A stretch of 64,000 nucleotides of DNA, from positions 164,424,001 to 164,488,000 of the forward strand of contig OZ024740.1 in the NCBI GenBank assembly GCA_964016885.1. Direction: 5' to 3'. The notes below the pieces were generated by a model. The model was not told where the DNA came from and did no database searches. It saw nothing but the letters and a program-made list of their open reading frames with translations. The DNA comes from Eledone cirrhosa (taxonomy: Eukaryota). How positions within the stretch are numbered: the first letter of the stretch is position 1; each line of letters starts with the position of its first letter. Shown here piece after piece: positions 262-64,000 of the stretch. Position numbers and translations under genes: made by a program.

Positions 262-343
<82 letters not shown>

Positions 344-529
344 ATACTTTGGGAGCGTCATATTGTTGTAATAATATTGCCAGAATTAATAACAGAACAC
401 ACTCACTGTTTGGTTCGTTTTCGCTTCTGTATCTTTTATATCAGTTAATTTATTCGGTCCTCAATGTTTACTATTGACTGACCAACGGTCAAAAACACAG
501 ATATAATATACACAAACACATATATATAG

Positions 530-578
530 TCTAACAAAGTTCTTTCGTTGCACATCTGCAACATCGTCAGTGGTGCTA
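530..578 (-). ncRNA. Antisense copy of the same hammerhead-like motif in the inverted pseudo-LTR
   Basis: tttcgttgcacatctgcaacatcgtcag at 543-570 is the exact reverse complement of the 3462-3489 motif. Confidence 0.7.
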
Positions 579-885
579 TTATGTTTCGTCCTGTTGAATT
601 GTATTCTACGCCATCAAAAACAAGAAACATAATAATAAAAGTAACAACCACAATGGTAGAAATAACAGTAACAACAACAATAGCAATAGAGAAAACAACA
701 CCAATATATCTAACAATCATAACAACAATACATCTAGCAATCAAAACAATAATAATAATGTTAATGATAGGAAAAACAACAACCACCATAATAACAATTA
801 TAGCAACACACACACCTATGACGATAGACATAATGACAACCCCTTAGAGAAACTATTCTTCAATCCAGCTGACAAAACATATCAG

Positions 886-3180
886 ATGGGTAACATTTAT
901 CCTACGAAGTTACCCTTTAATAAAAGGGTTTGTATACCACAACAAATAGATGACGAGACAGAGGCACAGTTCACCATAGCTAGAAATAAGATTAGACAAA
1001 TAGTAGACCAATATACTAAGAGACAAAGCAGACCAGAGGTCCAACAACCTGGAAGGAAACCTGTAGAACGCTTAGTTAGCCTCAAGCAGCGCACAAGGGA
1101 TGGTGAGGTAGTATGTCTACCCACGGATAAGTCTGGTAGGATGTCAATAGACAGCATGCCGAACTACATCAAGGCTATGCAACCCCACATACCAACACGA
1201 GCGAAATTACACAGCAAATACATGAGGGGAAGAGAGATCTTCAACGCTCACATGATGATGTGGACCGACATCCTAAAGCCAAGCAGACGCACTGCCAACA
1301 ACTTCCAGGCATCTAACAATGACATACCACCATTGTATGGACTCCGCAAAGACCATAAGACAGTCGAAGACCCGACAACAGGACCACCAACAAGACCTGT
1401 ATGCGGGGCCAATATCGCTAGCAACTACAGGATCTCCTACTTCCTCTCAATGGTTATACGCCCCATAATCAAGATGTCCCCCAGATGCATGTGACAGTAC
1501 AGAGGTCCTCCTCAGCAGAATCAGTGAGTACAAAAAAAAACCTATCCAACTGCATAATAGGCAGTATGGATGTGGTATGACTATACCCATCCATTAACAT
1601 TGATTTTGCTGTGGAAAAATGTGTGGAGATGATCATTGTGAGTGAGGTGGAGTTCTGCGACGTCGACACAGACGAACTGGGCCTCCTACTTAGATTTACC
1701 TATGACACTGACTACCTAGACAGCCATGATCTTAGCAGTTTCTTCCCCAGTAGTGCCATAAGAGGTAGACCCCCACCATAACCTCAATGTCAAAAAAGAC
1801 TCTCATGGGAAGGTGGATTGGGTGGACCAAAGCCATACGGACCCCCAAAAACAATGATCAGGTAAGAAAAATGGTCGCACATGCAATAGGGGCTAGTATT
1901 AAAACTACCCTAAAGGGCCACATATTCAAATTCAACGAGAATATCTACACCAAAAATGAGGATCAGCCATTGGCGTCAGCATAGCTGGTGACGTTGCCAA
2001 CCTTTTTATGGTATGGTGGGAAAGGAGACTCAAAGATCTCCTTGATGAGAGCTACATAGACCTCATCATGTACTCTCGTTACGTAGACGACATTAATATA
2101 GTAATAAGAACATCCCCACAAGAGAGTACTAACAAGTATGATTTAGAATGTAGCATAATGGAAAGCATACAGCAGATAGCTAATTCCATACACCAGAGTA
2201 TAACTCTAACTATCAACTACCCTTCCAAACACCCTAACGATAGACTACCTGTATTAGAGACGCAACTCTGGATTAACACTATAGACGAGAGAGCCCAAAT
2301 TCTCCACTCACACTACGCTAAACCCATGGCCTCCAAATACCTGATACTCAAAAACTCAGCAATGTCTAGTGGTGCTAAGTTTAATATTCTGATCGCAGAC
2401 TTGGTACGAGTGATGAAGAACGTGTCCCGCATGTGCGACCCAACATAAATGGAAAGACACATCCAACACTTCATCAACCGCATGCAGTTCTCTGGCTACA
2501 ACCAAAGAGACAGAATAAGAGTATACAAAGGAGCCACAGAGAAGTATAAGACCCTCAAAGGACTGGACATGAAAGAAATTTGCCCATTATACAGGAGCAA
2601 ATCATGGAATAGTTTAGATAGGACTAAACATGAGATAGGGAAAGCCACCGAGATACCAGAGTGTCATGTTCGTGGACGCTACCCCTGGAGGGAAATTAGC
2701 TAACCAGTGTAGAAAGGCCCTGAGAAAGACCCACTTAAAAATAAGGTGGTAGAAAAGCCAGGAACCACCATAAAATCCCTGATCAGCAAAACCTACCCTT
2801 TTAAGAAAACCCACTGTACCAATAGGAAATGTATCATATGTAAGGTGAACCCCCGGATAAAATGTAAAACTAGAAACGTAGTCTATAGCATAAGATGTAC
2901 AGAGGGTACTTGCAGAAACATGACAACAACATACATAGGTGAGACAGCTGGTAGCATGTGAAAGGATAGACCAACACTGGAGGAACCTAAAAGGAAGAAA
3001 AAACGGTTCAGTATTATAAGAACACGCCAGGCAACAATATGACGGTAACATAGACAACATAGAAATTAGAATAATATCTAAACATAGAAATGACCGAGCA
3101 GATAGGCAAATCAGAGAGGCCAGTGAAATAGAACTTAGAAGGCCACAGCTAAACAGAAAATATGAATGGAATAACAACAG
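886..3180 (+). pseudogene. Disrupted PLE reverse transcriptase/GIY-YIG endonuclease ORF
   Basis: ORFs 886-1494, 1787-1984, 2008-2448 (YSRYVDD), 2449-2703 and 2746-2961 (VVY..C..YIGET) are collinear but broken by stops and frameshifts. Confidence 0.85.
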
Positions 3181-3453
3181 CACCCAAACAAACAATACTG
3201 ACCTAAGAGAAATATAAATAAATAAATAAATATACACACAAGCACAATAACAACAAACACATATAAACACACACTAGTAAACTAAGATAGAATACAATAA
3301 CCAAAACACAGTCACCCAAACGCGAACACATATCAAACGCTATACACACACGCAAACGCATGCGCAGAGAAGAAGACAAAAATAAATAAATAAATAAATA
3401 TACAGATTAGATAAAAATGGCGTGGACATACAATACAACAGGAGGAAACATAA

Positions 3454-3500
3454 TAGCACCACTGACGATGTTGCAGATGTGCAACGAAAGAACTTTGTTA
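3454..3500 (+). ncRNA. Hammerhead-like motif in PLE 3' pseudo-LTR
   Basis: CTGACGA(3462-3468)-T-GTTGCA gatg TGCAAC-GAAA(3486-3489). Perfect 6-bp stem II; stems I and III weak. Confidence 0.7.
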
Positions 3501-3714
3501 GACTATATATATGTGTTTGTGTCCAAATTATATCTGTATTTTTGACCGTTGGTCAGTCAATGGTAAACATTGTGGACCGAATTAATTAACTGATATAAAA
3601 GATACAGAAGCGAAAACCAACCAAACAGTGAGTGTGTTCTGTTATTAATTCTGGCACTATTATTACAACAATATGACCCTCCCAAAGTATAACAATATTT
3701 GTTTCGACACACGA

Positions 3715-3870
3715 TTTCAGAAGATCCCGTTAAGGGTGAAAGCAGCGATTTTTTGCTTAAACTTTAATCTGTTATTTTAATAAATATTTGCTCTAAGGTT
3801 CTTATATATTTGATATATATTTATCCTTATCGAGCCCTCTTTGGATTTTAGTCTTCAAATTTATTATTAT

Positions 3871-6416: not shown

Positions 6417-6603
6417 AATTGTTTCTACTTTTGGCACAAGGCCAGCAATTAACCAGTGCATTACTGGTACTTTATTTTATCGACCCCGTAAGGATGAAAG
6501 GCAAAGTTAACCTCGGCGGGATTTGAACTCAGAATGGCAAGGTCCGTAACTCTATGCGTCAAAGCATGGCGTCCGACCCTCTACCGATACTGCCAATCCA
6601 CCT
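6417..6603 (-). mobile_element. tRNA-derived SINE (octopod-like family)
   Basis: Reverse strand shows A-box TGGCAGTATCGG, B-box GAGTTCAAATCC and 3' tail ggccttgtgccaaaagtagaaacaat shared with other copies. Confidence 0.85.
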
Positions 6604-6640
6604 ATACAATGTGTAGATACATATTATATGTTTAATATTA

Positions 6641-6829
6641 AGGGCGGTGAATTGGCAGTATCGGCAGAGGGTCGGACGCCATGCTTTCCAACATAGTTAC
6701 GTCCCTTTACGATCTGAGTTCAAATCCTGCCGAGGATGACTTTGCCTTTCATCCTTACGGGGTCGATAAAATAAAGTACCAGTAATGCACTGGGTAATTG
6801 CTGGCCTTGTGCCTAAAGTAGAAACAATT
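6641..6829 (+). mobile_element. tRNA-derived SINE, full length
   Basis: gggcggtgaattggcagtatcgg...tctgagttcaaatcc...aagtagaaacaat. Confidence 0.9.
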
Positions 6830-10403: not shown

Positions 10404-10694
10404 ACGAGGTGTCCTACACAAGTGAAAGTATAAGGAAAAAAGATGAAATCGAAAATGCAACTGGAGTCTTTTTTTTTTTAAATATATATTTATTTGGTTC
10501 CTTTACCCGTTTCGCAGTTCTTCTGCTTTTCAAAAGTAGAATTGAGATGGAGCGTTTGTCGTTACAAACCCTCCATCTCAATCCTACTTTTGAAAAGCAG
10601 AAGAACTGCGAAACGGGTAAAGGAACCAAATAAATATATATTTAAAAAAAAAAAAAAAAAATACTCCAGTTGCATTTTCGATTTCATCTTGTTT

Positions 10695-10701
<7 letters not shown>
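10404..10701. mobile_element. Fold-back (palindromic) element with a minimal hammerhead in each arm
   Basis: 10429-10559 pairs with 10564-10701. CTT-TTGAAAA-GCAG aagaa CTGC-GAAAC GG GTA-AAG at 10587-10622 (+) and 10501-10536 (-). Second family member at 62663-62943. Confidence 0.85.
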
Positions 10702-10834: not shown

Positions 10835-11289
10835 GGGTATCAAAAAATAATTATGGTATATATATAGGTCTCTACAAGTGGTAGGAGAGAGTGGGGAGTG
10901 GGATGGGTGTAGGTCATTGGTTGACAGAATTCATTAGAAGCTAATTCAACAAAGCTATAGTTTATTTTTATTTTTAGAGTAACAAAGGCAGGAAGAATTC
11001 TATAAACAGGTTCAGGATGGCATGCCAATCCTTATTAAGCTAATAGGTGTCTATAAAATCAGTGGGGGTCAGTCACGGTAGATAGATTTAAAGGAAAGGG
11101 AAATTCTTAAAAGCTAAATTCTTTACTAAGTGACAAGGTTTAGAGAATTCTGTAGACAAATTCAAAATATTGAGTGCATATCTTACTATTGTCGTCAAAT
11201 TTCTCTTAAACTATTCAACTATATGCCAAAATTAACAGACACATTCACAAAACACACTCACTCATACACTCGCGCGCACCCATAGACAC

Positions 11290-12570
11290 ACCCACGGCTG
11301 AAATTAGCGACCTTGTGGGCTTGTACATCCTACATCAACTGAAGAACCTATTTACCGGCCTAACCGGAGGTTTATACCGAGACGACGGCCTCTTTGCCCT
11401 GCATAGTGTTAACCCCAGGACTACTGATGGGTTTCGGAAAAACTTAAGCTCTTTCTTCTCTAATCTAGGATTTAGTATAACTATAGAATCTAATATGACT
11501 AGGGCCAACTTCTTAGATGTCACTCTCGACCTAGATACTTCCCTCTATTACCTGTACCACAAACCTAACGAGTCCCTTAGATATATTAACGTTAATTCAA
11601 ACCACCCCCAAAACATCACTGATAACCTTGTAAAAAGCGTCTCTATTAGAATATCTGGCCTCTCTGCCAACAAAGATATTTTTAACGCATCTGCCTCCTA
11701 CTACAATGACGCCCTCGCTCGCAGCGGATTTAAAGAAAAGATAACATACTTAGAAACCACCGCAAGATTGCAGAGGAGGAATAGACATAGGCAGATTAGC
11801 TGGTACAACCCTCCCTTCAATAGAGAGGTCTCTACCCCGATAGCTAGGATTTTGTTCACTTTGCTGAAATTACACTTCCCCGAACAACATGGGAACCACA
11901 CCATCCTTAATAAGAACACAATAAGACTCTCCTACTCCACCACACCTAACCTAGCTAGGAATATAGCCAACCACAATTCTAAAAAATTAAATAAGCCAAC
12001 CACCTCCGAACCCAATCCCCGGACTGGGGCGCTGTGTAATTTCCTAAATAAGGAAGCATGCTGCCTTGAAAACAAATGCCTCACAAATGATATCGTATAC
12101 AAATGCGATGTCATCTCAGGCACCGATGATTGCAAAAAAACTTACATCGGCAAGACCTCCAACAACTTTAAGACCCGTTGGTATGCCCATACCCACTCCT
12201 TCAGAAGACCGGACAAATCAAACCAGACAACACTCGCCTCCTATGTTTGGGACCTCAAAAGGAACTCCACCCCCCTCACACTTAAATGGAAAATACTCCA
12301 GAAAGCGCGCTCTTACAACGGAGGACACAAAGGGCTGCGACCTCTGTATCTCAGAGAGCTACGAAATTTTATTCGCCAAGGGCCCGCTACTGAACAAACT
12401 CTCTGACCACTGCCCGAACTGCATGCACAAGAACTTTGCAACTTTCAAACACTTTAAGCCAGTGTTAAAGCCCGATGGCTAAAAACGACTGCCCCCTATT
12501 GGCCCTTATTCCTCCTTACCACCCTACCCCCACCCCTCCTCAACCTGAAATACGGCCACTATGGTTATGT
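11290..12570 (+). mobile_element. 5'-truncated Penelope-like element (Hydra-clade-like RT + GIY-YIG)
   Basis: ORF 11315-12406: GLYRDDG, NFLDVTLDL, YHKPN..YINVNSNHP, WYNPPF, IVYKC..YIGKT..FKTRW..H, LKWKIL. After a frameshift: CDLC..E..LLNK....NCMH. Confidence 0.9.
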
Positions 12571-12949: not shown

Positions 12950-13770
12950 CACATCTCTCCTCTTCCGACCATCGCTTCATGGAATACTCGCACGCAGAAA
13001 TTGACGACCACAGAATCCACTAAACACCTTTGGATTTTACCAACTTTTCAACCATCCTCTTACGTAATCACCTATATAACTCACCCACACACACACCCCA
13101 AAAACATTTTTTTCTCCACACGCCACCTACACCCACAACACGCTTAAACCCCACACACACACGTGCTTTCCACCACATATTTACACCCTCAGCCTCCTGA
13201 TTCCTCTCCCCCCACCCCCTATCCACACACGCACAGACACTCCGACCCACAACCCCCCCCCCACACACACACCTACACCTCTTCCTGAACATGCAACCCC
13301 GTTCTTCCCCCAATCCTTACTTTCACATACACACACACACACACACACGTACACCTACACACACAAACCACCTTCAGCCCTCCCCGCTCGGACACCCCGT
13401 CTCCCTCTCCCCACTCCACCCGCCACCACCCCTACACCCCCACACCCTTCCACCACCTGTTTTACACCCCTTTAAATTTCATTTTATTTTGATCATGCTT
13501 TTATATTTAAATTTATTTCATTCCTTGTATTTTGATCATGCTTTATTTTTATTTTTATTTTTATTTTTTTCATTCGCACCGTTTCCTTTCGCTATATGTC
13601 TCTCCACCACTCCCCCACACACCCTTTGAACTCTGTTCCCACAGACTTCCCACCTGAGGAAGGGCTTATGCCCGAAACGTCGTCCCCCACCAACACCCCA
13701 CTCTCCTGAGCGTGAAATTAATAAACATTCGTTGTACTGCCTCTCTGTTTTGTCCCTGTTCAAATGTTTC
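12950..13770 (+). mobile_element. Probable PLE 3' fragment ending in a hammerhead, AATAAA and (TA)n
   Basis: Non-coding C-rich segment, HHR core at 13654-13684, aataaa at ~13720, then (TA)n. Confidence 0.5.
13644..13684 (+). ncRNA. Minimal PLE-type hammerhead motif
   Basis: CTGAGGA-A-GGGC ttat GCCC-GAAACGTC (palindromic ACGT helix III). Stem I not clearly formed. Confidence 0.7.
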
Positions 13771-18009: not shown

Positions 18010-18144
18010 ACTACGGCCTTTGCCATTCTGAGTTCAAATCCCGCCGAGGTTAACTTTGCCTTTCATCCTTACGGAGTCGATAAAATAAAGTACCAGTAAT
18101 GCACTGGGTAATTGCTGGCCTTGTGCCAATAGTAGAAACAATTA
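18010..18144 (+). mobile_element. tRNA-derived SINE, 5'-truncated
   Basis: B-box and tail identical to the family. Confidence 0.85.
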
Positions 18145-19085
18145 TTGTAACTATTTAATTAACAAAATAAATATAAATTTGAAGAGCGAAAACAAATTAT
18201 TTTGGATTACAGATTGTACATGTGTATCAAAGATTGAATGTCCTTTACTTTCCATGAAACAGAATTGCGTTCTTTCCATGCAGATTTCAATTATCGGCGG
18301 CCTTCTGTACTTCATCCTCTGTTCAAGTCTACTCATGCGACTAGACATTTTCAGCATTCTTAATCCCATCACTTAAAGTCATTTTTTGTATTTCTTTAAA
18401 AATTTACTTCCTATAATTTTTTCCATCAAAATAAAGTCAATATATGAGTTTCCAGACTAGTGTTGTCACTCCTTTTCTTATTCTTCCTGTATTTCACCCA
18501 CCACCATTGCTGGTGGAATGTTAAAATCAGTCGCTTCGTATCTAGAATTATGGAAGTATGGTTGGACAGTGTTTCTTATCCCCTGCAATGGGCCAATTAT
18601 ACCTTAAGTATATCCAAGCAGGCTTAAGGGCACCCTATTTACCATAACAGGTTAAGATACCAGAAGAAGACAGACATATTTAGTATTCTGCACAATGCTA
18701 ACACACGGTAGACAATATGTGGATAATTTATCAACGACAACACCCAATATACGAGTAAATATATAGCAGCAGATTATGTCTCTACAAAGGACAATGCTGT
18801 GATATACATGTCTAGCATGAATGCTGACTTATATATAGGTTTAAAATCAAACACTCTGAGAAAGATACTACAAACATATTTTGTTTCATATAAAAACAGT
18901 GTCTAGTAGCTGTCGACATACGTTTGGCAACCAAATTATCCAACATACAATTTCAAGGAAGTTTTTAGATTTGGGTGTTAGATTTCTAATAGATAAACTA
19001 AACTGGTAGAATTATTCTCAGTGGCCCATGTATGGGCATATATTGTTGTGAAATGTAAAAGTATGTTCCTCTGCATTGAGTGTAA

Positions 19086-27149: not shown

Positions 27150-27309
<160 letters not shown>

Positions 27310-30984: not shown

Positions 30985-31111
30985 CAACTAGACAGATAAA
31001 GAATAATGAGAAATAAGGGATTGTAAAGGATTAAAGAAATGGAAATGAAGAAATTATAGTTACTTTCTGAGAGATTATGACAGGGACGTCTGGAAACGCG
31101 TGGAATATATA

Positions 31112-31811
31112 TGCATATATAGGAAAAGCAAACAAGATAAAAAAAAAAGTCTTCACTTTAATGTCCCTACTGCAGTTTCATTGAGAAAATAACGATACTC
31201 CGAGTAGAGTATCACGAGAAATCTCAAATCATCAGGAGACTTTCTCGGTCCAGAAATAAAGTTCAAGACAAGAATTCCCACCATTCGCTGTCAGTAAACA
31301 TTTCGAATGAAAGAACTATCACGTGACAAGCGACCAACAGGAGGGTAATATATGTGGACAATGACAGGCTACGTGCTACTAGGAAAAGTAGTTCGATTCG
31401 GCCAAATTTTCACTCTACCATAAGGGAGTGTATTATATTAAACGAAGAAGTATATATATATATCTACGCGAGTATAGGTACAAGTGTAGATACATACAGA
31501 GAATCAACTTATACTACGTTTGTTCTTATGAAAGAGTTATTAACATCAACAGATTCAGAGCCTAATAAAATCATATATGGATTTAAGATTTCTCGCGATA
31601 CTCTACTCGGAGTATCGTTATTTTCTCAATGAAACTGCAGTAGAGACATTAAAGTGAGAAAGTAAAGATTTTTTCTTACCTTGTTTGCTTTTCCCATATA
31701 TGATTTTATTAGGCTTTGAATCTGTTGATTTTATTAACTCTTTCATAGAACCAAACTTAGTATAAGTTGGACGGTCTGAATGTATCTACACTTGTACCTA
31801 TACTCGTGTAC

Positions 31812-31812
<1 letters not shown>
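31112..31812 (-). mobile_element. Non-coding hammerhead element: one 458-nt unit plus inverted arm
   Basis: 31114-31224 is inverted at 31586-31702, and 31455-31580 is inverted at 31694-31812. The unit is terminally redundant (catatat(a)gg at 31114 and 31572). Confidence 0.85.
31163..31240 (-). ncRNA. Type-I hammerhead ribozyme with extended stem II
   Basis: GTCTC-CTGATGA-T-TTGAGA..GATACTC tactcg GAGTATC..TCTCAA-T-GAAA-CTGCAG-TA-GGGAC. Intact core and GUA site. Confidence 0.85.
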
Positions 31813-31844
<32 letters not shown>

Positions 31845-31913
31845 TTAAAATAACAGATTAAAGTTTAAGCAAAGAATCGCTGCTTTCACCCTTAACAGGA
31901 TCTTCTGAAACTA
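31845..31913 (-). ncRNA. Variant hammerhead (CAGAAGA core)
   Basis: AGTTT-CAGAAGA-T-CCT gttaa GGG-T-GAAA-GCAG cgattct TTGC-TT-AAACT. Confidence 0.6.
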
Positions 31914-36400: not shown

Positions 36401-39071
36401 ATAGTATGTCTTCAGAATAAAGGCACAGTATAAATAGTATGTCTTGAAATATATCACTGCAACATTCTATAAAAATCAATGACGATATATTCCTCTTTCT
36501 TTGTATAACCTCCATATCACGGTAAACTATGTTTTTTATCAACAGAATTAGCCTTTCTACAGATTGCACTGTATATTATTTTATCAGAGACATAATGCTT
36601 CGTGTAAATATAGTATAGTGATGGCATTTTCGGACTACCTTGTTTATCTATGTTACACTCAATCTGAAACTCTATAACAACATAACCATGCATGGTCTTC
36701 TAATGATATGCAAAATTCCTTGCATCTGCAGTTTTAATGTGGTAGCGTATTGCAACCTCTGTGAGAGTCATCAGTCAGAGAATACGTTTTTTGGAGATCT
36801 CTTCTAGCTTTCATGATTTTATCAGTCACATCTACATAGATTTGATTCCTGGATGTATAATTTGACGCTTGTTGACAACTAGATGATGTGACATTTAAAT
36901 GTTATTTCAATCGATATTAACCCTCTACTAACTAGTCTTCGTTTTAGAGATTTATGTAAAGGCAGTCAATTCCATTATCGATGTGGAAATGTCTGGTAGT
37001 AGGTAATAGCTTTCAGATTTTAAGGTCAATGGCTCTGACCTCTTTTTGTCTAAGTCGAGTAGCACCAATGCCTATAAGAACATTGTTGCAGCGAAAGGGT
37101 TAGTCACTAATTTATTGAATTCAGAAATGTTTTAGGACCATATTACTTGTTATAAGTCTCCTCAGAAGATATATCTTTACTGATAATTAAGTACCTGTAA
37201 CATTCCTTGTAAAGATATCGCTGAAATAGTAAGATATTTCTTTAAGTTTTCCTTCGTGGAACGTTTATTTTGGCCTATAAAAATGTCGACACACGATCAA
37301 TATTATTTTCATACTATTCATATTATCGAAATATGTTCTGTGCCGATGTTCGTATTTCACAAGAACTGTGAACTAACTACATACTCTTCAAATTTACACC
37401 CTAAAATTCAAGAGATTTCAAGTAAAAACATGTATAAACAGCATCAAAGAGAGTCTGCTTCTTTGAAATATATCTCTGAGATATTTTATCTCATCAAATA
37501 CAATATTATTGCCTTTTGTACTTAACATCAATGTAATGGTTCAGAATAAAGTCAGATTATCTTTGACTCTAATTAAGCTGTGTGACTAGCAGCATCAAGC
37601 ATTACTGAATGTGGAATAGAAATGAATGCGTTCTTGTAATGAAAGCTCTCTTATGCCGGGGAAGCACTGATTTGTTATTTCGAAGGTGCTTAGCTTCTTT
37701 CTTTTTCGCTGCTTGTTCAGCTGCGATGATAGTATTACTATTACAGTGATCCTGGGGGAATAGGTTCAGACAAGTCATATACATTTTAAACACTATATTC
37801 TGCCATGAAATTATCCAGTGGCACTTCGCAATGTAGATACCATTGTTGTTTCGGTATTAGATATACATGTACCGGTGAGCCTGCAATATTTACATCAGCA
37901 GTGAGATGGTGAAAATCAGTTTATTTTGTACAAGTATTCGACAATAAAGTTTATTTCAATTGTTATGAAATTTATTTTCACCACAGTCTCAGGAGTATAG
38001 CCATTGATATTGTATGAAGGTACAATGTTTTGTTTTTCCGCGGATTTCTTCTAGTTACAAGGAAGCATGGTTTAAACACCTTGTCGTCTCTCCAAAGATT
38101 CCTCCAGAATATATGTTATCTTCTTGAGTCGCTAAACATGTTATTGTTTATTTCTTATGTATGCATTTTAATGAAATAATTTTAATATTTTCCTTCTGAT
38201 GCATGATATTCTCGTTAATAGCTTTTAATGACTGATTGAGTGTGATTAATTTACACCTAAATCTTTTTATTTTACTATCTCTAAAATTTTTTACATTTTT
38301 GCTGGTGAGATGGATAAGGAAAGCAATGGAGTTAACGTCATTTTTAGATTTTTCAAGATTCCTTTTGTTTCACATATTCTTAAACTTGTATTTGAATCGA
38401 TGGTGGAAAAAGGTAAAATGAAGACACGTGACAAAATATATACATAAGAATATGAACAATGTGAGTACAGTGGAGATGAATACGTCAAATGGGAAGAGAA
38501 GGAATGTAAATTTTCAGGCTAAACCCCGTATCGAAATAGAGCAAGAATACGAAATAAGAAAAAGTTTAGGAACGATACTAACGTGAAGAACAGATGTGGT
38601 TTGAATGGCTACATGCATATATATACACAGAAATGTGAACATAAATTGTCTCTGCTTAGAATAGTTAACCATATTTGCATACAGCTTGGCAGAGAAAAAA
38701 GCTATAAGAGATTTACCATGTTCTCAACAGGAACCTACGTAATTTGCTTTGGTTTCTTAGAGATAAATTATGGCATTTACCGTACTAGATACAACCAGAG
38801 AAAATATTTTACATACTCCCAGCAGGTATAAACAGTATTCTCAGTAGGTAAATTGTAGCAATTACTATATCAGAAAAATAGTTTATTAAACGTTTATCAT
38901 GTTCTTGTTGCCAGAATATATATATATATATATATTCATTAGTTAAGCAAAACAAGATCACAAATTCACAAGGAAGACGTTATTTAAAGAGCGTCAACAT
39001 AGTTGCAGTTTAATGTAATGAATAAGGAGTGTAATTATAATTTAATGTAAGGAATAATAATAATAATGTCC

Positions 39072-39193
39072 GTTTACAATTGTTTCGCTACTCCATATAA
39101 TGTTTCTGGATCAATTGATTATTAGATAGTTATTGATCTGGTTCAGAGGAAGATAAGTAACTTAATTAATGTTATGGATCAGCTCTTCAGAAC
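39072..39193 (-). ncRNA. Hammerhead with ~97-nt stem II domain (3' pseudo-LTR)
   Basis: GTT-CTGAAGA-GCTG.TCCATAA...TTATATGGA.TAGC-GAAA-CAATTG-TA-AAC. Confidence 0.8.
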
Positions 39194-39605
39194 TTCAAAT
39201 GAGATAATGAAAATATTGATAAAGATAAGATAGAATAAGAAATATAAAATAAAGTACAGTAAGATGGTTACGTGATTGTAAGGTTACATAGATTGGTATT
39301 TCACGAAAGGGGTCCTGGATATCTCAAGTGTCTTCTATAAACAAGCATTACGCTTCTGTCGAGGCTATATTGAGCAAGATCTGCCTATGCATAGCAAGAT
39401 GGCCACTTTAGGAAATTTACCTTACTAATTAGAGACGGGTTTCAATGGAGGTGACTCCTTGAAAAGTTAAATTCATAAGTAATTTATAACTAAGAAGTGC
39501 AAATGACCTTAAATGAGAGACAATGTAGGGGAGGTAACTTATAATTATCTAAGTCTGGGTTAAATATTTAACCTGCTAGCTATATGTAATGGCGAGATTT
39601 GATGA

Positions 39606-42251
<2,646 letters not shown>

Positions 42252-42580
42252 GGTGGCTTCTAACTGTTAATAGCTCAACTACGGGAGCTCGAGTATACAC
42301 AGTTCGAGAGTAAACCAATCTTAAAGAGAGAGATGGAGATAGGAGAAGAGAGATTGGTGAAGGTGTTAGAAGCCAAAAGCGTAAAAACATGTGCTCGATG
42401 TGCAATATGCAGTGGAAGGCAGCTAGAGTGCTGGGTTCATGTAGAGATTAGGTGCACAGAGCTAGAAGTATTCATTAGTTACGCAAAACAAGACCAAGAC
42501 CACAAATTGACAAGGAAGACGTTGCAGTTTAATGTAAGGAATAAGGGGTGTAATTATAGTTTAATGTAAGGAATAATAAT

Positions 42581-42697
42581 AATTGTTTCTACTTTTGGCA
42601 CAAGGCTAGCAATTACTCAGTGTATTACTCGTCCTTTATTTTATCGACCCCGTAAGGATGAAAGGCAAAGTTAACCTCGGCGGGATTTGAAATCAGA
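42581..42697 (-). mobile_element. Truncated SINE inserted in the PLE pseudo-LTR
   Basis: Absent from the 3' repeat. Flanked by duplicated gtaaggaataataataat. Confidence 0.85.
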
Positions 42698-42721
42698 AAG
42701 TAAGGAATAATAATAATGTCC

Positions 42722-42843
42722 GTTTACAATTGTTTCGCTACTCCATATAATGTTTCAGGATCAATTGATTATTAGATCGTTATTGATCTGGTTCAGAGGA
42801 AGATAAGTGACTTAATTAAAGTTATGGACTAGCTCTTCAGAAC
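42722..42843 (-). ncRNA. Hammerhead with ~97-nt stem II domain (5' pseudo-LTR)
   Basis: Same motif 3650 bp away, with perfect GCTA/TAGC stem II base. Confidence 0.8.
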
Positions 42844-43406
42844 TTCAAATGAGATAATGAAAATATTGATGAAGATAAGATGGAATAAGAAATATACAAT
42901 AAAGTACAGTAAGATGGTTACCTGATTGTAAGGTTACATAGATTGGTATTTCACGAAAGGGGTCCTGGATATCTCAAGTGTCTGCTATAAACAAGCATTA
43001 CGCTTCTGTCGAGGCTATATTGAGCAAGATCTGCCTATGCATAGCAAGATGGCCACTTTAGGAAATTTACCTTACTAATTAGAGACGGGTTTCAATGGAG
43101 GTGACTCCTTGAAAAGTTAAATTCATAAGTAATTTATAACTAAGAAGTGCAAATGACCTTAAATGAGAGACAATGTAGGGGAGGTAACTTATAATTATCT
43201 AAGTCAGGGTTAAATATTTAACCTGCTAGCTATATGTAATGGCAAGATTTGATGACTATGTTGGGTCGAATATTCTGTTGGCGAAGGAATTTGCCCTACA
43301 ATGGTGACAGTTAAGAGTTACCTCGTTTCTGTCGTTAATAGGTTGTGGTTGTGACAGAGTTATGTAATAGGCCTCGGTAAGACAGAGATCACAACAGTTT
43401 CTCCGT

Positions 43407-43477
<71 letters not shown>

Positions 43478-48181: not shown

Positions 48182-48359
48182 TGGCAGTATCGGTAAAGGG
48201 TCGGACGCCATGCTTTCCAGCATAGTTACGTCCCTTTACGATCTGAGTTCAAATCCCGCCGAGGTTGACTTTGCCTTTCATCCTTACGGGGTCGGTAAAA
48301 TAAAGTACCAGTAATGCACTGGGTAATTGCTGGCCTTGTGCCTAAAGTAGAAACAATTA
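48182..48359 (+). mobile_element. tRNA-derived SINE
   Basis: A-box, B-box and tail match the family. Confidence 0.9.
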
Positions 48360-48897
48360 TTATGTGCAAGCAAAATGTACATATGTTGTACAAGACACTA
48401 TAAATTCTTTCGAATATTAGATAATATCACAGGTTGTAATTTTCGAATGTTTATAAATAAGTGTTCTTCGTTTAATTTGTTGTCTAAGTCAAATTTCTAA
48501 GAACGTTTTGAATGATCATTAACGGTTTCTCTCTGATATGTATATTTTAATAATATTACGTAAATGTTTAATCGTATTGTTTAAAAAACGCTAAAGATTT
48601 GATTGCTTGGTGATCTTTGGTGTTGATGTACTTATTTGAAATATTATGGGTCTATGGACGTTATTTTATTTGTTGTATATTTACGGTTTCATAGTTATGT
48701 GGTGGAGTATTACTTCTTCAATGCGGAGAAAGTTAAGAGCTCATTTTGGGATGCACCAATCTTACGTACTTTATGCAGCTTAACCTTTAAACGAATGCTG
48801 CTGTTTATCGTGCAGTGGTGGTGAATTTAAAGTATAACCATAGAAATTTTTTAAGACGAATGTTGAACCCTTATACGTCGACATACGACGGGAAGGT

Positions 48898-50929: not shown

Positions 50930-52976
50930 TATGTGTGGGAGGCATGCACAAGATTGTGTATGCTCTTATACTTTCTTAAATGGAGAAACATACATAGATG
51001 TATGTATAAACATAGTGTATATGCTTCATATTCGCCTCTATTAATGTATATATACATATATACATGTGTGCGTGTGTGAGTTTGTATATACCTACACCCC
51101 AATATGTACATATAACATGGTATTTTCTAACATAGCCACACAACCTTTCATACAGAACATCCATAGATCTATATTTACTTGAACATATTAAATATTTAGT
51201 ATTTGTGATGGGAAGAAAGCAGGCTGGTCAAAAGATTAAGTGTACCTAAACACATGGAACAATGTCTTTTATTATATCTGATGAGAAATGAGAAATGTTA
51301 ATGTAGATGCAAACTATGTTTAACGATAATGATAATTAATTTGCTTAGTGGCGTCCCTTTGTGATTCATCTGTTCCTGAAGCTAGCTTCGCGTTTTGAAA
51401 GGCCGGAGATTTAGTGTTAACCACGCAGCTAGATTAATATTTAGAGTTAGTGGATGGACAATTAATTGTTAGAATATGACGTGTGCAATAAAATGATCTT
51501 CGTTCATTTGCTTACGGCAATATGAATTTCTTAAGTGTTATCAACTATAATATCAGAGAATATATTAGGAATAAAGGTTTTTATTAAATCTGTACGCAAT
51601 AATGATTGGTTGCTATCATTGTTCGTTTTACTGTGAATTAGTTTTAGACTTTGAAAATGTTGTTGTAGTTATTATTAATATTTTATTATTATTATTATTT
51701 AATAGGTGTATTTTCATTGATTTCTCTCATTGCATTTCGAAGTAGTGCTTTGTATGTATTGGGTATGTGCAATTTTCTGTTAATTCTAAGGTATTAGAAC
51801 TACTCCCTGTAATATGTATGCAGTGACTAGTATTCTCCGTATGCTCCGCATATTTGTATATACTGACCTTTTTCATAAGCATATGTTTAATCTTCCACAT
51901 TATGGTGAGCTCTATTTCAGATACTTTTATACTTTTATAATGTCTCTTCTTCGAGGAATCTTCTATCATTTGTTGAAACTGATACATCAATAAGGAGGCA
52001 CTTTCTATTATATGTGGTCTTTCACAACAATAACCGTCCGATTGGCCTTCCTAACCTTATCTGTGAGGATAGGCCTATCCCAAACTATGCTCGCTTTCCC
52101 GTTTTCTAAGAGTTGTTTTATGTATATTTCTGCATCCTCTTTTCTAGATATTCTAGATATCTTTTCTAATGATGGCGTAACTTCGACCTTCTTCTGTCCC
52201 TGTAGTTGATCTCGAAGATCTCATTAATACTCTCCTTATCCCCCCTCCCTTCTTTTATTCTTCTCTAGGATAATCGACTCTCTTTCAAGTTCCTCCTTGT
52301 TCACCTCATTCATCACAATTTCACCAGTCTCATGCATTTCATCCTCATCTACGACATTTCTTCAAACTTGACCTGGCGAATTCAAAGCCTCATGATTGAA
52401 AGATCCATGCAGATCCAAGCATCCCCACAGCAGAAATGTAAGAATCGTCTACGTAATCAACCAATTTGTTATAGATACCATCAAAATATGGACCAAAACA
52501 AACCCACAGTCTTAATAAAAGAAGTGCATATTATATGACATGATCCTAGATACAACTATAATAAATTAGGTGCTAGTAAGGTGTTGCAAATTTCTGGTAA
52601 CGTTTTTTAACTTCATTAAGAAGATTTATATTTTAAGGAGGTTAATGTCATTGCAAGAAAGCCAAATTAGAAATACCGAGAGCGCCTGAATAAGACCTTG
52701 AAGAATGGAAGAAATATATTGATCTACAAGTGAAAGCAATTTGCATTTAATATATTTTTCTTTTGTCCTGAGATCAAATTCGTCCATCATCAGGATGGGT
52801 TTAATCAATTATTTCCTCTACTTATTATTAAAAATCGATGTGCCCATACGCCAAGAGATCAATGTGCCATGGCAAGAAATTGATTACAAATAGAAGTTTG
52901 GATTCAAGAAACATACACCTGGGCATTTGAAATTATAGACGCTACTGACATCATACTAATTTGATGTAATATAACA

Positions 52977-53158
52977 TAATTGTTTCTACTTTTGGTACCA
53001 GGCCAGCAATTACTCAGTGCATTACTGGTACTTTATTTTATCGATCTCGTAAGGATGAAAGGCAAAGTTAACCTTGGCGGAATGAACTCAGAATAGCAAG
53101 GGCCGTAACTCTATGAATCAAAGCATGGCGTTCTACTCTCTACCAATACTGTCAATCC
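52977..53158 (-). mobile_element. tRNA-derived SINE
   Basis: Reverse-strand match to the family. Confidence 0.85.
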
Positions 53159-53207
53159 ATATAATATAATATAGTATAATATATGTGTTTATATATATAT
53201 ATATATA

Positions 53208-58246: not shown

Positions 58247-58456
58247 TGTATATATATATATACATATATATATATATGAATGTATATATAGTGTTTTGCA
58301 ATACACTGTATGCTTAATTAAAAGCATTTCGAAGACCTTACGCTATTGTTTTAGAGTAGTGACAGTCTCACTTACTTTAAATTTTCAGCAAACAGGGGAG
58401 ATAAAGCTGACAGAGCTCTGTTTCATACTGATTGGTACTTATCAAAGCCAAGTATC

Positions 58457-59480
58457 CAGATGCATACATATGCTAGCAAATATATAGGTTTTGTCTTAGT
58501 AACTTTGTGGTTCAATGCAAGGGGATGCAGAACAATTATATGAAAGACGTAAAATAAGAAAATTATAAAAATAAACTTACTAAAATTTCACTCCAACTAA
58601 TTAGTTTCTGAAAGGGAATAAACATGGTTTCCGAATGGGACACATGGAGAAGGCCTTTCGTCATCAGGAAGTCTGTTCTCAGCTAAGTTCCCAGGCAATG
58701 CGTGGACACAAGTAGGCAGTGATTTTTTCAATGTCTTGGAATTTAGTCCACGCTTGCTTTTTTCCATCCACTGAATTATTTTTGTATAAGTTCCCTGTGT
58801 CCACGCATTGCCTGGGAACTTAGCTGAGAATAGACTTCCTGATGACGAAAGGCCTTCTTCATGTGTTCCATTCGGAAACCATGTATATTCCCTTTCAGAA
58901 ACTAATTAATTGGAGTGAAATTTTAGTAAGTTAATTTTTATAATTTTCTTATTTTACGTCTTTCATATAATTGTTCTGCATCCCCTTGCATTGGACCACA
59001 AAGTTACTAATACAAAACCTATATATTTGTTAGCATAGGTATGCATCTGTATATATATGTTGGTAGATATACTAATTCTTTATAATTATCTCCAAATTAT
59101 TTTGTTGAGCGAAAATTTGCCAAAACTGCTACTATAGTTCATAGTAATAGTTCGGCTACTATCTTCTTAACACCCCACTCCTCACTGATTAACCTCGATG
59201 TCACGTGATTGATTCTTTTGAATTTGCCACCGACCAAGTAGGCAGTGATTTTTTCAATGCCTTGGAATTTAGTCGACGCTTGCTTTTTTCCATCCACTGA
59301 ATTATTTTTGTATAAGTTCCCTGTGTCCACGCATTGCCTGGGAACTTAGCTGAGAATAGACTTCCTGATGAAGAAAGGCCTTCTCCATGTGTTCCATTCG
59401 GAAACCATGTTTATTCCCTTTCAGAAACTAATTTTAGTAAGTAAGTTAATTTTTATAATTTTCTTATTTTACGTCTTTCA
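58457..59480 (+). mobile_element. Non-coding element: 526-nt unit, direct repeat and 254-bp inverted arm, three stem-II-less hammerhead-like cores
   Basis: 58457-58710 is inverted at 58796-59049, and 58709-58965 repeats at 59235-59480. CTGATGA-N-GAAA-GGCC-TTC at 58839, 59365 (+) and 58667 (-). Confidence 0.85.
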
Positions 59481-60984
<1,504 letters not shown>

Positions 60985-62662: not shown

Positions 62663-62943
62663 CGAGGTGTCCTACACAAGTGAAAGTATAAGGAAAAAAG
62701 ATGAAATCTAAAATGCAACTGGAGTCTTTTTTTTATAAAAATATATATTTATTTGGGTCCTTTACCGGTTTCGCAGTTCTTCTGCTTTTCAAAAGTAGAA
62801 TTGAGATGGAGGTTTTGTGGTTTTCTCACATCTACTTTTGAAAAGCAGAAGAACTGCGAAACCTGTAAAGGAACCAAATATGTATATATTTTTTATAAAA
62901 AAAGACTGCAGTTGCATTTTCGATTTCATCTTTTTTCCTTATA
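62663..62943. mobile_element. Second fold-back element of the TTGAAAA-hammerhead family
   Basis: Near-identical to 10404-10701 but with a different centre. HHRs at 62760-62795 (-) and 62835-62870 (+). Confidence 0.85.
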
Positions 62944-62974
62944 TATATATATATATATACACACACAAACACAC

Positions 62975-64000
62975 ACAGACATCCGATGGGCACGAAAGAA
63001 GCCCCCTCATACACCAACCTTGTCATGAGATATTTGAAAACCACTCTCTACTGCAAAGTTCTCGAAAAATACGGCAATGCCTTCTACCAACACATAGAAA
63101 AGAACTGGAAGAGATATCTGGACGACTGCTTCATCCTCTCCCATGAAAGTATAGATAGAGTGTTTGAGTTTAAAACCCTTCTGAATGGACTCAACACAAA
63201 CTTACAATTCACAATGGATTACAGCCATGAACAACTCCCTTTCCTCGACATCCTCAAGAAAAGAAACAACAAAATAGAAACAGACATATACTACAAACCC
63301 ACAGACTCCAAACAATACCTCCCATTCAACTCGTGCTACTCTAGTCACACCCAAATGGCAATTCCTTATAACCTAGCCAGAAGGATCTGCACAATAGTTT
63401 CAGATAAATCCACATGCTACACACGACTAGAAGAATTAAAAACACACTTATCAGCAGAAACTACCCACCATCCCTAATCAACAATGGATTCCAACGTGCC
63501 CTAAAACTCGACATAAAGGAACTCAGACACCCCAAACCCAGGAATGAACCGCAACAAAAACCTCTACCATACATCTCCACACACAACCCCCTCAACAATG
63601 AGGCATTCGACACCATCCTCCAGAACATTCCTTTACTAAAAAGAGACCCAAGAATGAACAAAATCCTCCAAACACACAACATCATAAAGAGCAAAAGACA
63701 ACCTAAATCCATAAAAAACATCCTCACACAAGCCAAAATCCAACGAACCCTTACAATAAACCCTACAGTAAGGCCCAACTGTGGCATATGCATAAATCTA
63801 ATAGAAGGTTCAACATTCCATTTTAAACAAGGACAACATTTCACAGTTAAACACAACTTTACATGTGCATCTGAAAACCTAATCTATGTGTTGACCTGCT
63901 CAGGTTGTCTGACTACATAGGACAGACAAAAAACAGCCTCCGTCCACGTATGGCCGTCCATAAATCATAAATTAAAATACAGGAATACAGAAAAATTGCA
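62975..64000 (+). mobile_element. 5'-truncated Penelope-like element (Neptune-like), running off the window end
   Basis: MGTKEAPSYTNL, WKRYLDDCF, LPFLD, YYKPTDSKQYLPFNS, IPYNLARRI, FTCASENLIYVLTC..C..YIGQT. Confidence 0.9.

Follow-up and report, generated by a model that had tools for sequence, protein, structure and literature searches.

The 64-kb window, by which we mean the whole stretch of DNA analysed here, is microsatellite-rich animal DNA holding many decayed retroelements, and it contains two head-to-head copies of a repeat that we call F1. The full unit occupies the minus strand from 31580 to 31114 (467 nt) and consists of a 458-nt unit with a 9-nt terminal redundancy, a near-repeat of a TA-rich site standing at both ends. 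A preliminary description of this DNA held that the minus strand starts and stops at one point of the unit, and this is borne out; the unit length given there was also correct, but to call the monomer permuted was an overstatement, since its ends sit on a TA site that other copies use as well. The unit has 35% GC, and six-frame translation gave no long ORF in it, nor the RT plus GIY-YIG ORF of an autonomous PLE.

The opposite arm, on the plus strand at 31580-31812 (233 nt), is an inverted, 5'-truncated copy of F1 that matches positions 351-467 of the unit at 87.8% and then positions 1-117 at 88.9%, being 88% identical overall. It crosses the unit junction without a break, as had been claimed, and comprises the 3' part of a hammerhead (31580-31647), the TA site (31695-31702) and 110 nt of the next unit. 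The hammerhead in this arm is incomplete: it begins within the core, and the 5' strand of stem I is missing. The two arms overlap by 1 nt at 31580, within an inversion junction (31568-31584) whose sequence reads as a palindrome of 16 bp and one additional base. Both arms extend through the predicted cleavage site and both terminate at their 3' ends in TA tracts: a TA-rich left end at 31105-31122, the point at which other copies enter (TA)n, and a (TA)n target tract at 31812-31845, on whose far side a different short repeat also has its 3' end. The place where the inverted arm ends corresponds to an internal TA tract of the unit (31451-31463); this forms a second site for 3' ends, about 117 nt beyond the first. 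No target-site duplication is discernible at the locus. The arms diverge by 12%, a value for which insertion age and the use of two templates cannot be told apart.

On the minus strand at 31240-31163 a type I hammerhead ribozyme is predicted from a descriptor and from folding, with cleavage after 31168. It has the conserved elements of the type (CUGANGA, GAAA and UH, three helices, stem I open), with stem I formed by 31240-31236 and 31167-31163 (5 bp including one G.U), the core CUGAUGA at 31235-31229, GAAA at 31179-31176, GUA at 31170-31168 and a palindromic helix III at 31176-31169. Stem II (31228-31180) measures 49 nt and is built in two tiers, with a U.U mismatch, 6 bp, a 7x6 internal loop, 9 bp and a 4-nt loop. 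The 5-bp stem I, palindromic helix III and two-tier stem II of about 50 nt in the preliminary description were thus all found again. The description of the ribozyme as intact with a perfect core holds for the core bases, but the base of stem II carries U.U instead of the usual G-C; the G10.1-C11.1 pair is absent from both families discussed here, the second of which, F2, has C.A or A.A. Three reports (PMC7229834, PMC8557442, PMC3088659) present U.U at this position as a tolerated natural variant. A scan of both strands of the window with the type I descriptor gave two sites, the F1 hammerhead and one in F2 at 58667. The Rfam hammerhead models gave no match at the gathering threshold in the window, and the nine matches obtained in 31000-31900 with the limit relaxed to E 10 include no hammerhead.

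Folding predicts an extension of stem I (31155-31262, minus strand) with a 6-bp lower helix and a side hairpin. The segment GAGAA (31246-31242) could pair with UUCUC (31220-31216), which lies in the internal loop of stem II; the duplex energy is -7.6 kcal/mol in F1, and the same complementarity recurs in F2 at -2.9 to -4.8 kcal/mol. We regard this as a candidate pseudoknot between stems I and II, with the antiparallel geometry expected. It is a matter of conservation and not of covariation, and in F1 these two segments also pair in an alternative fold that is inactive. The two F1 copies show two-sided changes in none of 15 pairs and add no covariation. Since the free fold is more stable than that of the ribozyme by about 7 kcal/mol, the activity of the F1 ribozyme is uncertain. 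The palindromic helix III is unable to fold alone, and the pairing of a dimer is worth -11.1 kcal/mol. Among 40 of 197 rows from other copies, substitutions in the ribozyme occur in six rows at five positions; four keep the pair, one lies in a loop and none falls in the core.

Four of the six DNA runs carrying the same species label were examined on 31030-31600, X1 and X2 coming from one sample and X4 and X5 from other samples; 185 loose-end rows were left out of account. The F1 unit is present in three runs of one sample. It is matched by 306 contigs in X1 and 312 in X2, most of them 80-95% alike and 32 and 31, respectively, at least 99% alike, and by 81 reads in X4 and 70 in X5. Five distinct head-to-tail junction strings were found in the X1 and X2 contigs, none of which matches the window arm by eye, and the units that they imply are 443-467 nt long; single reads of X4 and X5 also show a head-to-tail joint, and two complete F1 hammerheads in a row are not among these joints. 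Seven contigs in X1 and eight in X2 enter (TA)n at 31105, and the internal TA link lies within a divergent contig (X2 record 15, 31336-31560). As the junction strings and this contig together cover all links, every link of the unit recurs elsewhere. Most copies seen pass 31580 into the next unit. The opposite-strand joint at 31580 occurs at single-copy depth (9 in X1 and 6.9 in X2) and is most simply the window's own inversion junction; X1 and X2 may derive from the source sample of the window, and for this reason the joint is not independent evidence. Summed depth over the ribozyme is 800-1570, as against about 10 for an exact-match piece, which suggests tens to about a hundred F1 copies, the summed depth not being a copy number. 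F1 is a multicopy, non-coding repeat family.

A scan of all CUGANGA cores, together with self-comparison of the window, revealed the sister family F2 at 58453-59484. Here a minus-strand arm (58710-58453) meets, head-to-head, a tandem of 1.5 units whose period is 526 nt, with three copies of a long-stem-II hammerhead in all and a 3' end in (TA)n. Two of the cores are in tandem 526 nt apart, helix III of the second being damaged. The layout matches that of F1 in its inverted arms and (TA)n 3' end, but F2 holds 1.5 units. The alignment of F1 with F2 scores 64, against 31.6±4.6 for shuffled sequences, and none of 300 shuffles reaches this value; on their sequences, the two families are homologous and distantly related. 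Stems I and III and the lower helix of stem II are unlike in sequence with pairing kept, and stem II (49-52 nt across both families) follows a common plan of mismatch, 6 bp, internal loop and upper stem. The loop motifs UUCUC, UAUU and an apical AYUC-GGA are conserved, as is GAGAA immediately 5' of stem I.

The same alignment brought out a 10-mer on the minus strand at 31319-31328, shared with F2 (59199-59208), which may be an internal promoter element and which we take to be of E-box type. It has two matches in the window where 0.08 are expected, for a motif that was picked after alignment. A second conserved motif (31403-31415, minus strand) may be part of the same promoter region. A B-box-like 9-mer on the plus strand near 31393 was dropped; F2 has no counterpart.

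These data bear on two rival explanations. According to the first, F1 is a satellite-like repeat spread by DNA recombination, with an inversion that arose later at the DNA level or is an artefact of assembly. The 12% divergence of the arms fits this, as does the left flank (31030-31089), which has no depth in all four runs, although the gap may come from a filter on microsatellite-rich records. Against it, the opposite-strand joint at 31580 is found at single-copy depth in two runs of one sample (possibly that from which the window derives), the 3' end of either arm falls at a TA tract, F2 repeats the layout and the stems remain paired, and we judge it very improbable. According to the second, the unit comes from an autonomous PLE that is absent from the window, of which it would be the pseudo-LTR and 3' end, and the locus holds two truncated ends of that PLE. 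Summed depth does peak over the hammerhead and drop upstream, as with 5' truncation, and long contigs (X2 record 10, 3440 nt; X1 record 4, 1714 nt) extend upstream beyond the unit. However, every link of the 458-nt unit is found again among the other copies, the unit has no ORF remnant and no ORF lies between the two F2 hammerheads that are 526 nt apart, which makes this reading improbable.

The reading that we prefer, with somewhat better than even confidence, is that the locus represents head-to-head copies of a hammerhead-bearing non-LTR retrozyme, inserted into a TA tract by the RT-endonuclease of a PLE, probably of the Hydra clade, that copied an uncleaved head-to-tail transcript. The observations behind it are the closed multicopy unit, the head-to-tail joints elsewhere, the 3' ends tied to TA, the arms crossing the cleavage site and the inverted layout found again in F2. 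What the preliminary description missed is that this layout, a partial tandem with an inverted 5'-truncated copy, an optional 3' extension and a microsatellite target, is that of a standard PLE insertion. In the mechanism that we propose, tandem units would be transcribed from the internal promoter as a multimeric RNA, and the PLE protein would nick both strands of (TA)n. Target-primed cDNA could start at either of two TA-like sites, which lie 54 and about 170 nt 3' of the predicted cut; the optional 3' extension would follow from this choice, and two 5'-truncated cDNAs would then be joined head-to-head, here at a palindromic TA site. One arm would be of exactly unit length because the joining fell at that site. 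In tandem transcripts the hammerhead would cut as a dimer, helix III being too weak for a monomer, possibly with help from the pseudoknot, and the released monomers may circularise.

The nature of the template can be narrowed from the arms themselves. Because both cross the predicted cleavage site, it should have been uncleaved or re-ligated RNA, and because cDNA begun at the first site on a linear cleaved monomer would be no longer than 54 nt, it should have been either an uncleaved multimer or a circle. That the template was circular or tandem had been proposed before and is supported by the head-to-tail junctions in other copies. A circle itself would have a parallel in related retrozymes of molluscs and corals, which build up in circular form (PMC7229834). 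With the same element and the same PLE enzyme, cDNA on a ligated circular RNA would run from the TA site once round and stop at its own primer. This would account for the crossing of the cleavage site by both arms and for the unit length with its 9-nt terminal redundancy, as a random 5' break would fall within ±5 nt of this point about 2% of the time. The locus was, however, chosen for its unit-length feature. A circular fold of the unit has z = -1.9 (2 of 60 shuffles are as stable), but with 59% of bases paired it is only marginally stable. A length of exactly one monomer is not specific to a circle: the F2 insertion contains 1.5 units, most copies seen at 31580 continue into the next unit, and the palindrome at the junction gives another reason for the break point. 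Differently permuted copies had been anticipated elsewhere, and head-to-tail junctions do occur, but the ends are shared at the TA site. For these reasons we favour the multimer, which we hold to be somewhat more probable than not, over the circle, which is possible but tentative.

As to the enzyme that would have inserted the retrozyme, the window contains a decayed PLE on the minus strand at 38935-43408, which has (TA)n at either end and whose two pseudo-LTRs (pLTRs) are 97.6% alike. It carries DKT, CxCx5C and CxxC, as do most of its 20 homologues, and according to Craig et al. (2021, PMC8557442) these motifs define the Hydra clade. A hammerhead-like motif in its pLTRs combines a stem II of 97 nt with a helix III that is palindromic and a stem I of only 3 bp. 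The pLTRs are unusually long (about 800 nt); the 5' one carries an inserted SINE-like sequence, and a (TA)n tract lies within the end of the ORF. This element likely represents the type of helper used by F1. The helper clade is nevertheless not proven, since similarity of the whole F1 unit to the Hydra pLTRs of the window is not significant (reached by 154 and 51 of 300 shuffles) and matches of short end motifs are weak (21 of 1000 for the monomer, 151 of 1000 for the arm, 664 of 1000 for F2 and 11 of 1000 after the cleavage site). Neptune- and Naiad-like PLEs likewise target (TA)n. A Naiad helper is not favoured by comparison, by eye, with five published Naiad consensus 3' ends, mostly from cephalopods, which in the portions available bear no likeness to F1. 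None of six motifs was found in the accessible published PLE consensus files (supplement of PMC8557442), where line breaks can hide matches. A Pfam search with nine PLE-like ORF pieces gave one sub-threshold GIY-YIG match and one unrelated weak match. Three further PLE-like regions were observed in the window: RT remnants between 278-nt inverted repeats that are 95% alike (340-3694), with CUGACGA cores at 570 (minus) and 3462 (plus); a second Hydra-like fragment with a weak GIY-YIG match (11210-12482, plus); and a fragment (62899-63920, plus) that is Neptune-like, its clade assigned by eye.

The window holds several other repeats. A short repeat adjoining (TA)n tracts is present in four copies (31846-31912, 3715-3860, 27243-27309 and 59987-60134), one of which shares the (TA)n tract of the F1 arm; three of its copies include a hammerhead-like motif with the core CAGAAGA, not CUGANGA. 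Two related palindromic elements of about 270 nt (10429-10701 and 62687-62943), 85% alike, also adjoin (TA)n, and short motifs of CUGANGA followed by a hairpin at 13654 and 45211, both on the plus strand, may be minimal PLE-type hammerheads. A dispersed family, found as an inverted pair at 6420-6826 and in about eight other places (e.g. 18012-18146, 48182-48361 and 52976-53159), is SINE-like, and we take it to resemble the SINEs of octopods.

Among known systems, F1 is closest in general plan to the non-LTR retrozymes. PLE hammerheads acting as dimers and circular retrozymes have been described (Cervera 2014, PMC4209133; Cervera and de la Peña 2020, PMC7229834), and a recent preprint argues that retrozymes are non-autonomous PLEs and reports solo monomers (Li et al. 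2026, bioRxiv 10.64898/2026.07.22.740005); in that preprint, eight of nine predicted retrozymes were uncleaved in vitro and one was cut. As described in the 2020 and 2026 reports, these elements share with F1 a non-coding tandem unit that is low in GC, measures a few hundred bases and holds a single type I hammerhead, and their dispersed solo monomers and proposed derivation from PLEs as non-autonomous forms are likewise F1-like. The F1 unit, with 35% GC, is under the 50% bound for such elements, and its 458 nt lie slightly above the range of 150-450 bp given in 2020 and inside that of 51-972 in Li et al. It differs in its two-tiered stem II of 49 nt, where theirs has a canonical 4-bp helix, and in a PLE-type inverted arm that is seen directly.

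PLE insertions with an inverted 5'-truncated copy at the 5' end, an optional tail and a bias to (TA)n are described in Craig et al. (2021), where the inverted copy is noted for one Hydra-clade family. F1 resembles the Hydra-clade PLEs in its (TA)n targets, a hammerhead near the 3' end, the U.U base and a short self-complementary helix III, and differs in lacking an RT/EN ORF and in the length of stem II (49-52 nt in F1 and F2 against at most 26 nt in 25 families). By our count of File S2, as far as it was available, 14 of the 25 families have U.U at the base of stem II. The same source describes one stem II of about 54 nt, that of PLE-X1 from Selaginella, and reports for eight Naiads 'half cores' with a spacing of 35-50 nt. 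Head-to-head inversions of Penelope with junction palindromes (Arkhipova et al. 2013, PMC3846280) and internal initiation by a PLE RT at two sites in vitro, cleavage being unneeded for insertion (Frangieh et al. 2024, PMC11167929), have also been reported. With such insertions F1 shares the inversion, the junction palindrome and two alternative 3' ends, whereas its extension is about 117 nt, not 30-40, and it has neither a coding body nor a visible target-site duplication. Hammerheads with pseudoknots, and with U.U at the base of stem II, appear in Perreault et al. (2011, PMC3088659); compared with these and with Selaginella PLE-X1, the candidate contact modelled in F1 would use the internal loop of a two-tier stem II and would belong to an animal tandem repeat. 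In the searched literature, which leaves most subscription papers outside, we found no animal retrozyme described as having such a two-tier stem II, and the supplements of Li et al. may list similar families. A pattern of core, gap and helix III had 17 matches in viral contigs, none with flanking stems evident by eye and none with a match to F1 longer than 21 nt. A 23-nt F1 motif had no match in metagenomes, and the stem II pattern of F1 and F2 had 17 metagenome matches, none with GAAA at the right distance, and no viral match. These pattern matches are treated as chance.

The F1 locus is thus real and is mostly accounted for by known PLE and retrozyme biology; it is not a new kind of element, and it reveals neither a new element class nor a host function. 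What is modestly new is a variant ribozyme together with a direct PLE signature on a non-coding unit. A more far-reaching proposal, which we consider doubtful, is that F1 and F2 come from a lineage, old and by now diversified, of circular RNAs that carry a promoter and parasitise Penelope elements of the Hydra clade, and in which stem II would be a conserved two-tier module with its internal loop pseudoknotted to stem I and an apical loop able to bind a helper protein; a large set of such ribozymes, missed by Rfam and by short-spacer descriptors, could then lie hidden in (TA)n-rich invertebrate genomes, including in PLEs scored as 'lacking' or 'half-core'. More directly, the comparison of F1 with F2 defines a small, testable hammerhead variant, and since Rfam misses this type, the number of hammerheads in genomes of this kind may be underestimated. 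The link between retrozymes and PLEs was earlier argued mostly from co-occurrence and phylogeny; here a retrozyme-type unit bears the PLE signature directly (inverted arm, two 3' end sites and a (TA)n target), and does so twice in 64 kb.
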